DNA of 60,775 nucleotides from assembly GCA_964567295.1 (NCBI GenBank), contig CAZMLU010000005.1, positions 1 to 60,775 of the forward strand. Reading direction: 5' to 3'. Shown here one piece after another: positions 18,842 through 23,781 of the stretch. The position numbers were made by a program, and so were the translations under genes. Under the pieces are notes generated by a model. That model did not search any database, was not told the DNA's origin, and saw only the letters and a program-made list of their open reading frames with translations. Each line of letters begins with the position of its first letter. The first letter of the stretch is position 1. The stretch is from an uncultured Desulfovibrionaceae bacterium. GTDB taxonomy: Bacteria > Bacillota > Dethiobacteria > DTU022 > UBA8154.

Positions 18842-19954
18842 ATGCGCAAAGCCGTAAATGTAGTAATTTTTGAAGGGGGAAATCCGGAAGGCAGAACAGA
18901 AAAAATACTGGCGGATGTGCGCCATGCTGTTCTGTTGGATAACATCAATAAAATGAAAAAAGTGCAGCAGATAGGGTCTATTTATCTGCTCACAAATTAT
19001 TCGGAGTTGGCAGCAGAGGTTTCTTCTATGGGGGTAACGGTATGGGAGAATCAGCGCAGTAGAGAAGACTTTCATTTCGGGAAGGTCTTGCAGGAGCTCA
19101 TAAATAGCGAAAGGCTGGAAAATATCCTCTATGTAGGGGGTGCCAGCATTCCTTTTGTCACCGTGGCAGAATTGGAGGCTATTTGTGAGCAACTACAGGA
19201 AGAAGCAAAAATTGTTTACTCCAATAATGCCCAGTCGGCTGATATTATTGCTTTTACTCCTGCTTCCCTCATCAATAGTATTAAACCTCCGGCCATGGAT
19301 AATATTCTGGCTATTGAGCTGCGAGATAATTCAGGTATAGAGATGAAGCTTTTTCAAAATACACTGGGACTGCTTTTTGACTTGGATACTCCGGCCGACT
19401 TGTTGGTGCTGGCCGGGAGCCCCTTTACCGGTCCTCTTGCCTCACAAAAAATTAAGGCCTTAAAACTGGATCTTTCGCGATTGGAAGGAGCAAAAGAGGT
19501 CCTCAGGGGAGATTATGAGGAAATTGTTTTGTTGGGCAGAGTGGGAGCTCCTTTAATTGCTCATATTAATAAAAATATTAAGGCGCGCTTGCGTATTTTT
19601 TCCGAGGAAAGGGGCATGAAAGCCCTGGGGAGGGAAGAGCGTGGGGAAGTCACCTCCTTAATGGGTTATTTTCTGGAGGAGGTTGGACCTGAGAAGTTTA
19701 TAGATTATATAGAAAAAATTGCGCGGTGTGCCTTCCTGGATACCAGGGTCTTAATGGCGCACTTCAGGATGAATCTCACCCCTGAGGAGCGCTTTCTTTC
19801 TGACCTGGGAATGTGGGAAGAGTTGAGCAATCCACTGATGAGTGATTTTACCAGGGCTGTTATGGGATCAGAAATTCCTGTTCTCTGTGGTGGGCATTCC
19901 TTGGTATTGGGTGCATTATGGGCGCTTGTTGAGGAGATAGGACCTACATATTAG
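18842..19954 (+). CDS. Hypothetical protein with CofC-like/GT-A nucleotidyltransferase N-terminal region
   Basis: LFDLDTPADL resembles the CofC/MobA D-(I/V)-D-T-P-x-D-L motif. The C-terminal half (FSEERGM, LDTRVL, GGHSLV) is unassigned. Confidence 0.5.
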   Translation: MRKAVNVVIFEGGNPEGRTEKILADVRHAVLLDNINKMKKVQQIGSIYLLTNYSELAAEVSSMGVTVWENQRSREDFHFGKVLQELINSERLENILYVGGASIPFVTVAELEAICEQLQEEAKIVYSNNAQSADIIAFTPASLINSIKPPAMDNILAIELRDNSGIEMKLFQNTLGLLFDLDTPADLLVLAGSPFTGPLASQKIKALKLDLSRLEGAKEVLRGDYEEIVLLGRVGAPLIAHINKNIKARLRIFSEERGMKALGREERGEVTSLMGYFLEEVGPEKFIDYIEKIARCAFLDTRVLMAHFRMNLTPEERFLSDLGMWEELSNPLMSDFTRAVMGSEIPVLCGGHSLVLGALWALVEEIGPTY

Positions 19955-20065
19955 GTAGTCATAACGCTGTTTTACCCTGTTGGGAAAAAAATGGGCAACT
20001 TGCGGGAAGGAATGGTTTTCCTTGTTGGCTTATACTTCCCACATAATGTAGAGGGAGTGGGTTTG

Positions 20066-21391
20066 GTGAAGATCTATGAGCTTTCTAATCTGACAGAGGA
20101 CGAATTGCAGGCCTTGATGAGCCGATCGGAGATTGATGTTACTGAGCATGCTTCCCTGGCCTTAGAAGTTATGGAGAGAGTGCGCAGAGAAGGTGATCAG
20201 GCTCTTTTGCACTATACGGAAAAGTTTGATGGGATTCGGCTGGAGCAGTCAGAGATCAAGGTGCCTCCTGAAAAGATAGCTGAGGCCTACTATAACTTGG
20301 ACGAACAGACCAGGGATACGCTGCAGTACGCTGCGGATAACATAAAAAAATTCCATCAGGAACAGCTTCCATTAGAGATGTGGATGAAAGAAGTTGACGA
20401 AGGTATTTTGGCCGGAGAGAAGGTTACACCTATCTCTGATGTTTGCCTCTATGTTCCCCGGGGTAAAGGTAGTTTCCCTTCGGTGATGCTGATGTTAGGG
20501 ATTCCGGCCGCTTTGGCAGGCGTTCCAAATATCATGGTGTGTACTCCTCCCGGGCAGGGCGGCCTGGTTGAAGAAACTACTCTGGCAGCAGCCCATATCG
20601 TTGGTATAAAAGATATTTACAGGATTGGCGGGATGCAGGCCGTGTCAGCCGTAGCTTTTGGAACGGAGACTGTGCCCCGTTGCCGCAAGATAACCGGTCC
20701 CGGCAATGCTTATGTGAACGCTGCTAAAAGATTGCTTTACGGTGTTCTGGATGTAGGTTTGCCGGCAGGACCTAGTGAAGCCATCATCATGGCTGATGAA
20801 AACGCTGACCCTCATACCGCAGCCTTAGATTTGCTTATCGAGGCGGAGCATGGTCCTGACTCAGCGTCATTGTTAGTGACTCACTCCAGGACTCTTGCTC
20901 AAGAAGTTTTTGAGCTGGTTCCCCAGCTTCTTCAAAAATTGCCAGCAGAAAACCGCAGTTTTGTGGATAATGTTCTTAACGGTTATGGAGGTATTATTCT
21001 TACAGATAGCCTGGATGAATCGGTGAGCTTTGTCAACGAATACGCGCCGGAGCATCTGGAAGTATTAGCAGAAGATTCCTTTTCTTTGCTGCCCTGCATC
21101 AAAAATGCGGGGGAGATTTTACTGGGGCCATATACACCTATAACCCTCTGTAATTTTTTATTGGGGCCGAACGCCATTCTACCTACCGGATCTTTTGCTA
21201 AAACTTATTCCGGGGTTTCGGTTCATGATTTTTTAAAACGTTCCTCCTTCGGCCATGCCACCCGAGAGGGTTTCCATAAGGTGAAAGAAAAAGCAGAGTT
21301 TTTTGCCCGGACAGAGGGTTTTCTCGCTCACGCCATGGCAGTAAGAGAAAGGTTAAATAATCCCAAGGGAACAGGAGGTGGTCCGGAATAG
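20066..21391 (+). CDS. hisD: Histidinol dehydrogenase-family protein, divergent active site
   Basis: KITGPGNAYV, AGPSE, APEHL, DFLKRSS, EG-x-AHA. Start GTG 20066 after GAGGGAG (ORF track starts at 19991). True HisD activity is not assured. Confidence 0.8.
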   Translation: MKIYELSNLTEDELQALMSRSEIDVTEHASLALEVMERVRREGDQALLHYTEKFDGIRLEQSEIKVPPEKIAEAYYNLDEQTRDTLQYAADNIKKFHQEQLPLEMWMKEVDEGILAGEKVTPISDVCLYVPRGKGSFPSVMLMLGIPAALAGVPNIMVCTPPGQGGLVEETTLAAAHIVGIKDIYRIGGMQAVSAVAFGTETVPRCRKITGPGNAYVNAAKRLLYGVLDVGLPAGPSEAIIMADENADPHTAALDLLIEAEHGPDSASLLVTHSRTLAQEVFELVPQLLQKLPAENRSFVDNVLNGYGGIILTDSLDESVSFVNEYAPEHLEVLAEDSFSLLPCIKNAGEILLGPYTPITLCNFLLGPNAILPTGSFAKTYSGVSVHDFLKRSSFGHATREGFHKVKEKAEFFARTEGFLAHAMAVRERLNNPKGTGGGPE

Positions 21392-21429: not shown

Positions 21430-22062
21430 ATGCAGGTAACAGCCAAGAGGAAAACAGAAGAATCCAGTATTGTAGTGAAGGTGGTCTTTGGGCCTCGGCC
21501 GGCTGAACCCAAAGAAAAGTTGCAGACTACCATGCCTTTTTTAAACCATATGCTGGAGCATGTGATCTGGCGTGGCGAATTTAACCTGGAAGTAAGTGTA
21601 GAACTGGGTGACTTTTATCTCTCCCATGTAGTATGTGAGGATATAGGCAGTACTTTCGGGGTAGCTGTTGCGAAAGTTCTTGAAAACAGGGTGGAAGATG
21701 GTGTGAAGGGATATGGGTATGCATTTGCTACTATTGACGAGGCGCTATGTCGGGCTGTAATTAGCTTTGAAAGCAGGGCATACCTGGATTTAAATCCTGC
21801 TGAGGGGATTGTTGTGCCATCAGAGACAGAAAACACTCTTTCGGAAGACTTGAAGACTTTTTTTGAGGGATTTGTTCAGGGAGCACGCTGCACTTTACAT
21901 CTTGATATTCTTAAGGGAGAAAACGGACATCATATTTGGGAAGCAGCCTTCAGGGCTTTTGGTGAAGCTCTCTTTAATTCTTTTGAGCTTCGAAAGTGGA
22001 GAAAAGGAATCACAGCCGGAGTGGCTGGACCGTTAACTATTGAAGTAGATAGTGAAGGATAA
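21430..22062 (+). CDS. hisB: Imidazoleglycerol-phosphate dehydratase-family protein, divergent
   Basis: RKTEES, FLNHML, EDIG-TFG, IDEAL, NGHHIWEAAF; first HH motif and C-terminal STKG altered. Confidence 0.7.
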   Translation: MQVTAKRKTEESSIVVKVVFGPRPAEPKEKLQTTMPFLNHMLEHVIWRGEFNLEVSVELGDFYLSHVVCEDIGSTFGVAVAKVLENRVEDGVKGYGYAFATIDEALCRAVISFESRAYLDLNPAEGIVVPSETENTLSEDLKTFFEGFVQGARCTLHLDILKGENGHHIWEAAFRAFGEALFNSFELRKWRKGITAGVAGPLTIEVDSEG

Positions 22063-23247: not shown

Positions 23248-23781
23248 TTACTCTTTTTGTTTCAACTTGCCTAGCGAAACTATGAAAAGGATTGCCCCCA
23301 TGGTTAAAACTACGTAATTGGCTAACTGCGCTTTTTCCAGGCCTCTCTGGAATACAGGTCCGATCAAACTATCTGCATCAAGGATTAAGTAGCCGGGGAG
23401 AATACTGATGATTATTTGAGAAATGGTAAATATGATAAGGGAAAGAATAGCTGGCGCCAGGAAGATTGAAAAACTACCGTATAAATAATAGAGAAATATA
23501 AGGCAAAACCCGATAGCACCAAGTGATACCCAGAAAATATTTTTAATGACAATCTCATCAACATTGACCATCATGGTTGCCAGTTCCGGTGGATAAGGTG
23601 TTGCTTCAGTGGCGATTACCAGTTCTTCAGAGACAACCATCTCTGATAAGGAAAAAGTAAAAATTGAGGCCAGCACTGCAGCAGCGAAGACCACCGATAA
23701 AATAATTTTCAATAAGAGCTCTGCCCTTCCTATTGGGTTTTTCACAAGCCTTGCCACCCTCCTGCGTCTTATTTTATTCAT
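23248..23781 (-). CDS. Hypothetical membrane protein (about 4 TM segments)
   Basis: 177-aa ORF with basic N-terminus and alternating hydrophobic segments; no family recognised. Confidence 0.7.
   Translation of the reverse strand: MNKIRRRRVARLVKNPIGRAELLLKIILSVVFAAAVLASIFTFSLSEMVVSEELVIATEATPYPPELATMMVNVDEIVIKNIFWVSLGAIGFCLIFLYYLYGSFSIFLAPAILSLIIFTISQIIISILPGYLILDADSLIGPVFQRGLEKAQLANYVVLTMGAILFIVSLGKLKQKE

Follow-up and report, generated by a model that had tools for sequence, protein, structure and literature searches.

A Glu259/Asn360 subfamily of histidinol dehydrogenase with altered zinc-ligand residues, associated with a divergent hisB and a HAD hydrolase gene

The stretch of DNA analyzed here (the window, 60,775 nucleotides) carries a gene of the histidinol dehydrogenase (HisD) family in which two of the four canonical zinc-ligand residues are changed, Gln259 to Glu and Asp360 to Asn. 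HisD of this Glu259/Asn360 type (E/N HisD) is an old subfamily that is widespread in anaerobic Firmicutes, and the variant module to which it belongs replaces the canonical hisD-hisB(-hisJ) genes and is no addition to them. We consider it likely that the window gene encodes the true terminal dehydrogenase of the histidine pathway, with a remodelled zinc site and as part of a variant end module. Histidinol dehydrogenase (EC 1.1.1.23) is an NAD-dependent enzyme that converts L-histidinol to L-histidine in two steps. Its Gln/His/Asp/His zinc site has been treated as invariant and used for annotation and inhibitor design, and the E/N clade, which is common in gut and sediment Clostridia, would offer a natural experiment on the rebuilding of a metal site without loss of function.

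Residue changes in the window HisD and the clade they mark

The features of the window that are discussed below are as follows.

20051..20057, forward strand: Shine-Dalgarno sequence GAGGGAG, 9-15 nt upstream of the GTG at 20066, read from the sequence
20066..21391, forward strand: hisD of the Glu259/Asn360 (E/N) subfamily, 441 aa, GTG start, with PF00815 and TIGR00069 matches
20459..20461, forward strand: codon of Arg132 in YVPRG (canonically the first Gly of YVPGG); Arg in 21/31 E/N versus Gly in 102/112 canonical representatives
20840..20842, forward strand: codon of Glu259 (canonical Gln259, axial zinc ligand), from alignment and homologue counts
21152..21154, forward strand: codon of Asn363 (E. 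coli Asp360, equatorial zinc ligand), from alignment and homologue counts
21173..21175, forward strand: codon of Ala370 (E. coli His367); Ala in 25/31 E/N versus His in 110/112 canonical representatives
21430..22062, forward strand: divergent hisB (IGP dehydratase), PF00475 at 118 bits, the sole IGPD of the genome
22071..23246, forward strand: 391-aa HAD-IA hydrolase with a large cap, a candidate histidinol-phosphate phosphatase; Pfam HAD_2, Hydrolase, and Hydrolase_like

The hisD frame proved free of stop codons on translation. The GTG at 20066 was preferred as the start over an upstream ATG at 19991, because the alignments with homologues of 430-441 aa begin at residue 1-2 of the window HisD. 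The protein matched TIGR00069, the NCBI HisD equivalog model (460.5 bits, cut-off 243.8), and the Pfam family PF00815 (487 bits, cut-off 27) over the full length, and it aligned full-length at 37-47% identity with the canonical HisDs of E. coli (1K75/1KAE), B. suis (4G07), and M. truncatula (5VLB-5VLD). When the solved relatives were ranked by score, the true HisDs (288 bits) stood above the DHPS dehydrogenase (240 bits) and HpsN (211 bits).

Individual residues were read from a HMMER alignment of the window HisD to Brucella suis HisD 4G07, in which the relevant segments (window/Brucella) are LIEAEHGPDS/LAQAEHDTAA, TLCNFLLGPNAILPTG/VIGDYVGGSNHVLPTA, and YVPRGKGSFPS/YVPGGTASYPS. All of the substitutions listed in the original prediction (QAEH to EAEH, GDY to CNF, NHVLPT to NAILPT, and YVPGG to YVPRG) were seen in this alignment, and the codon positions given there, 20840 for Glu259, 21152 for the Asn at E. 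coli Asp360, and 21173 for the Ala at E. coli His367, were exact. The catalytic and distal residues that it described as kept, namely APEHL (Glu326/His327) and EGFLAH (Glu414/His419), were indeed retained, as was His262. Of the canonical ligand set Gln259/His262/Asp360/His419', the window HisD therefore keeps His262 and His419 but has Glu in place of Gln259 and Asn in place of Asp360. It also contains the AGPSE loop, the FD and GGxQA motifs that bind NAD, and the imidazole-binding Glu414' of the EGF motif.

In solved HisDs, His262, Asp360, and His419' coordinate the zinc, with Gln259 becoming a ligand only after histidinol binds and with the other two sites filled by the substrate amine and imidazole, while His327 acts as the base and Glu326 activates water (PMC5585171; PMC11382572). 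With the axial Gln259 now Glu and the equatorial Asp360 now Asn, the window enzyme would possess a rebuilt zinc site. As judged from the sequence, the Glu/Asn pair can supply O/N/O/N donors (two O, two N) with the net charge unchanged, and the metal switch provided by Gln259 is probably altered. The canonical mechanism is expected, because His327, Glu326, His262, His419', and Glu414' are all unchanged, and the canonical reaction would be carried out on the rebuilt site, with a predicted substrate and a predicted metal. In the Medicago enzyme, the substrate oxygen touches the backbone carbonyl of the His367 equivalent and not its side chain (PMC5585171), and the replacement of His367 by Ala may leave specificity unaffected, because this contact is made via the backbone carbonyl only. 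The NAD pyrophosphate, which binds to the YVPGG backbone (PMC5585171), would have the new Arg of YVPRG beside it.

Further changes that are usual in the clade (window numbering) are Asp231 to Gly, Ala135 to Gly, Tyr137 to Phe, Phe352 to Leu, and Leu419 to Phe. In Medicago HisD, a Glu four residues N-terminal to Asp360 pairs with Gln259. A second-shell charge change at this position was rejected as a defining difference, as Glu occurs there in only 48/112 canonical representatives (Val in 42/112).

The combination Glu259/Asn360/Ala367 was found in all 121 nearest homologues (60-83% identity), which came from Dethiobacteria-like bacteria, Petroclostridium, Oscillospiraceae, and other Clostridia, and from both MAGs and isolates. 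Of the 150 representatives obtained by clustering at 50% identity, Glu259 occurred with Asn360 in 31 and Gln259 with Asp360 in 112, and odd combinations were limited to a handful; such a pattern lies far outside chance expectation. A FastTree phylogeny of HisD representatives, with a HisD-family paralogue of 33% identity as the root, united the E/N sequences in one clade, with a support of 0.94 for the main clade and 0.52 for the deepest node. The catalytic Glu326-His327 pair was present in 31/31 and the imidazole-binding Glu in 30/31 of the E/N representatives. The suggestion that the gene belongs to a distinct HisD subfamily is upheld by these data, since the E/N pattern marks a single clade among the 150 representatives. 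The related claim of selection rather than decay also stands, because the same substitutions recur without exception throughout a large clade. Literature searches returned no paper on the E/N subfamily, its ligand residues, or a characterized member, and neither these searches nor the solved relatives yielded a validated HisD with Glu/Asn.

Several members of the clade have unusual architectures or active sites. P0125 (661 aa) and P0134 (651 aa) are, as gene calls, single polypeptides in which an E/N-type HisD is fused to a variant IGPD. P0172 and P0189 are nested in the E/N clade but retain neither the catalytic Glu-His nor the zinc ligands (R-A-H-Q-T... and G-S-R-A-C...), and may be inactive paralogues or pseudo-enzymes.

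Copy number and partner genes of the variant hisD

The gene had been described as a HisD paralog. This description does not hold, because it is the only PF00815 gene in a 100%-complete genome (2.02 Mb, 0.87% contamination), and because the variant type excludes canonical HisD among the relatives and in a second order. Within the window's own order, 40-41 relatives had exactly one HisD per genome with a match. Variant HisD was found at 16/16 loci read in the window's own family (23 genomes with a match, one copy each), and canonical HisD at 13/13 loci read in sister families of the same order. The second order, that of Ructibacterium gallinarum, was examined through an even sample of 81 genomes, 72 of them HisD-bearing; 49 carried only the variant, 23 only the canonical type, and none both, although related genomes are not independent, and such genome counts overstate the number of independent events. 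Among 27 further variant carriers, 24 had a single HisD copy. Two of the three two-copy carriers had two variant copies, and the third had a distant paralogue (33% identity, QAEHG...GDK) that is no canonical HisD. The HisD-family paralogue of 33% identity at locus L165 (G136:C31:86974-88185) has QAEHG and GDKGIGTNHILPT, lacks the HpsN His motif, and coexists with the E/N HisD.

Like canonical HisD, the variant is single-copy and is located in his clusters beside hisB. Unlike canonical hisD, the window gene has as linked partners a divergent IGPD gene and a HAD phosphatase gene rather than hisC and hisJ. The hisB and HAD genes adjoin it in the window, with hpf, metG, tatD, and secA at a greater distance, and the order of variant hisD, then hisB, then a 330-390-aa HAD hydrolase was found at 75/86 loci. 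In two genomes of other families (G136 and G424), the hisD-hisB pair closes complete hisZ-G-H-AF-IE-D-B operons. E/N HisD, the remodelled IGPD, and in most cases the HAD phosphatase would thus be inherited together as one module.

The window IGPD scored under every NCBIfam HisB equivalog cut-off. IGPD scores were 117-131 bits in the variant family versus 194-210 bits in the canonical sister families, and IGPD type was perfectly coupled to HisD type in the relatives. Its residues were read by alignment to Arabidopsis IGPD. The second His of the DHHxxED motif ligates Mn2 and two Arg bind phosphate in IGPD (PMC10978614, from which the residue roles were taken). In the window protein, this motif reads SHVVCED, with the Mn2 ligand replaced by Val, Gly occupies the place of one of the two Arg that bind phosphate, and the C-loop S-T-K-G has become G-V-A-G. 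The variant IGPD has a new conserved Glu-His in the first motif, and its anion pocket retains three Arg.

The HAD protein has intact DMDGV, GDSLAD, and KPHP motifs and is a full-length homologue of PDB 1QYI (169 bits), an uncharacterized S. aureus protein and its sole solved relative. No match to the NCBIfam HolPase models was obtained, and literature searches on HAD-type HolPases in Firmicutes yielded nothing relevant. In the window's own order, HisJ over the cut-off was found in 14/15 canonical sister-family genomes with HisD versus 5/24 variant relatives, and in the Ructibacterium order in 23/23 canonical versus 6/49 variant genomes. The window genome has no HisJ over the cut-off, and the two variant genomes without the HAD gene, G136 and G424, have HisJ-family matches of 203 and 142 bits. 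On this distribution, the HAD protein probably supplies the histidinol-phosphate phosphatase step in place of HisJ. It resembles the PHP-type (HisJ/HisK) and HAD-type (HisB-N) phosphatases in being encoded in his clusters, and it alternates with HisJ as a non-orthologous replacement would, but it differs from them in being a 330-390-aa HAD-IA protein with a large cap and no NCBIfam HolPase match. The alternation of HAD and HisJ, together with the presence of HisJ in the HAD-less variant genomes, implies that histidinol phosphate, and therefore histidinol, is still made. 1QYI could serve as a template for this candidate family of histidinol-phosphate phosphatases.

Elsewhere, the window genome carries a long-form HisG, a hisH-hisA-hisF-hisI operon, and a HisC of 355 bits (cut-off 277), whose gene neighbours (UbiD/UbiX, NUDIX, and TsaE/B/D) were uninformative. 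Its HisI, a cyclohydrolase of 110 aa, has no HisE domain, and PRA-PH signals in the genome are limited to two matches of approximately 22 bits inside one 503-aa ORF (G000 C2:37353-37916, C7:29440-29661); the pyrophosphohydrolase step may therefore be done by a MazG-like protein.

The reaction of the variant enzyme and rival explanations

That the window gene encodes a true HisD is supported by the presence, in one complete genome, of this sole HisD and sole IGPD together with HisG, HisH-A-F-I, and HisC. Against this reading, two of the four canonical zinc ligands differ and the partner IGPD is altered as well, hence the whole module. The original prediction had favoured an altered substrate, citing the repurposing of the HisD fold in HpsN, which oxidizes a 2-hydroxy substrate with the 2-OH on zinc (PMC11382572). 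HpsN/(R)-DHPS-3-dehydrogenase (8V35, 8WWE) shares with the window HisD the fold, an octahedral metal site, and a four-electron oxidation of a primary alcohol, and it shows that the fold tolerates coordination changes and a non-amine ligand at C2. HpsN, however, retains Gln/His/Asp/His and adds a sulfonate-binding, zinc-capping His126 in the motif G-R-Y-A/S-H. This motif is absent from the window protein, which has G-K-G-S-F (Phe in 29/31 clade members), and no sulfonate-pathway genes (hpsOP, suyAB, or transporters) were found around the window hisD. By these sequence features, the window protein is not HpsN. An altered substrate is not favoured in view of the neighbouring hisB, the complete his operons elsewhere, the score above the TIGR00069 cut-off, the missing HpsN motif, and the backbone-only contact of His367, although the anti-correlation with HisC described below leaves some room for a substrate that is altered yet still histidine-directed. 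Prototrophy of Dethiobacter alkaliphilus, which grows autotrophically without yeast extract (PMC10376724), was dropped as evidence, because the proteome table of the type strain shows a classical hisZ-G-D-B-H-A-F set with a HisJ-family phosphatase; one variant-carrying MAG bears the name of this species.

In the Ructibacterium order, HisC (TIGR01141) over the cut-off was found in 22/23 canonical versus 0/49 variant genomes; the 23rd canonical genome has a HisC of 241 bits beside hisD. Among the first 27 variant carriers, HisC was over the cut-off in 8 and missing at this level in 19, and HisA and HisF were present in 5/5 carriers checked. In a sample of the window's phylum (n = 401), 328 genomes had HisC over the cut-off and 330 had HisD, and roughly one in ten canonical-HisD genomes lacks a TIGR01141-level HisC, as estimated from two profile counts. 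Because of the variant genomes without HisC, the canonical route would need another, unrecognized aminotransferase. Genomes that carry the module without a recognizable HisC or HisJ, and with an IGPD below the HisB cut-offs, may be called histidine auxotrophs by automated tools.

The HisC counts could instead reflect a rewired, HisC-independent end of the pathway, in which the phosphate would be removed early, the E/N enzyme would form imidazole pyruvate, directly or via imidazole glycerate, by oxidizing a non-aminated imidazole alcohol (imidazole acetol or imidazole glycerol), and a general 2-oxo-acid aminotransferase would act last. This would account for 0/49 versus 22/23 and for the 19/27 carriers that lack HisC though HisA and HisF are present; the three module genes, all divergent and co-inherited, would catalyze consecutive steps, the IGPD lacks a phosphate-binding Arg and an Mn ligand, HisD-IGPD fusion proteins occur in the E/N clade, and HpsN is a precedent for a 2-hydroxy substrate with its 2-OH on zinc. 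Nevertheless, the window genome and its family retain HisC (346-363 bits), the HAD-less variant genomes carry HisJ-type phosphatases, suggesting that histidinol phosphate is an intermediate, the variant IGPD keeps its three anion-pocket Arg, and a TIGR01141-level HisC is also missing from about a tenth of canonical genomes, non-orthologous aminotransferases being not unusual. Literature searches produced no biochemical precedent for an imidazole acetol/imidazole pyruvate route. We therefore regard such rewiring as unlikely, and favour a replacement aminotransferase over late-amination rewiring as the explanation of the HisC pattern, because the window family keeps HisC and because the variant is accompanied by HisJ in G136 and G424. 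Should the HisC anti-correlation nonetheless reflect chemistry rather than gene replacement, it would mean a new route to histidine, and the rewired end, if true, would be the first alternative late-step route in a pathway regarded as universal and invariant.

The remaining explanations concern the metal, the substrate, and the integrity of the gene. The same reaction might be run with another divalent metal (Mn, Fe, or Co) or be tuned to zinc-poor sulfidic habitats, which would refine the preferred reading of a true HisD; metal ligands are changed in both metalloenzymes of the module, the carriers are anaerobes of sediments, digesters, and guts, HpsN functions with Co, Zn, or Mn (PMC11382572), and Mn activation has been reported for bacterial HisD (PMC5585171). 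This refinement appears unlikely, as the donor atoms (two O, two N) and the net charge of the ligand pair are unchanged and closely related anaerobes of the same orders have canonical HisD. It is highly improbable that the gene is a repurposed paralogue acting on a non-histidine substrate (HpsN-like, a polyol, or an amino alcohol): while the ligand set and residues near the substrate are changed and the fold has been repurposed before, the gene is a sole copy that is mutually exclusive with canonical HisD, lies in his operons, has G-K-G-S-F in place of the HpsN motif, and conserves the imidazole-binding Glu414 in 30/31, and the genomes would otherwise make IGP without means to complete histidine. 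Finally, a decaying or inactive gene is scarcely credible; two of the four zinc ligands are non-canonical, but the reading frame is uninterrupted, the key residues do not vary over 50-83% identity, and synteny is kept in more than 80 loci.

Other reading frames near the module

Between hpf and hisD, a 370-aa ORF (18842-19954, forward strand) was found, without a Pfam family and with a faint CofC-like match to TIGR03552 (20.9 bits). This ORF was rejected as a part of the module and is probably not a his gene, as it is conserved at this position in 6/86 loci, within the Dethiobacteria-like set only. On the reverse strand, a 177-aa ORF (23248-23781) converges on the HAD gene, with no Pfam or NCBIfam match.

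At 31/64 gut-Clostridia loci (for example L100:10915-11445 and L101:11097-11648, and 29 more), a gene of approximately 180 aa for a Fumerase_C protein, resembling the beta-subunit of class I fumarase, lies directly 3' of the HAD gene; it is absent from the window. No alpha-subunit gene was found beside it at the gut-Clostridia loci. In Ructibacterium, the Fumerase_C gene overlaps the HAD gene by 11 nt.
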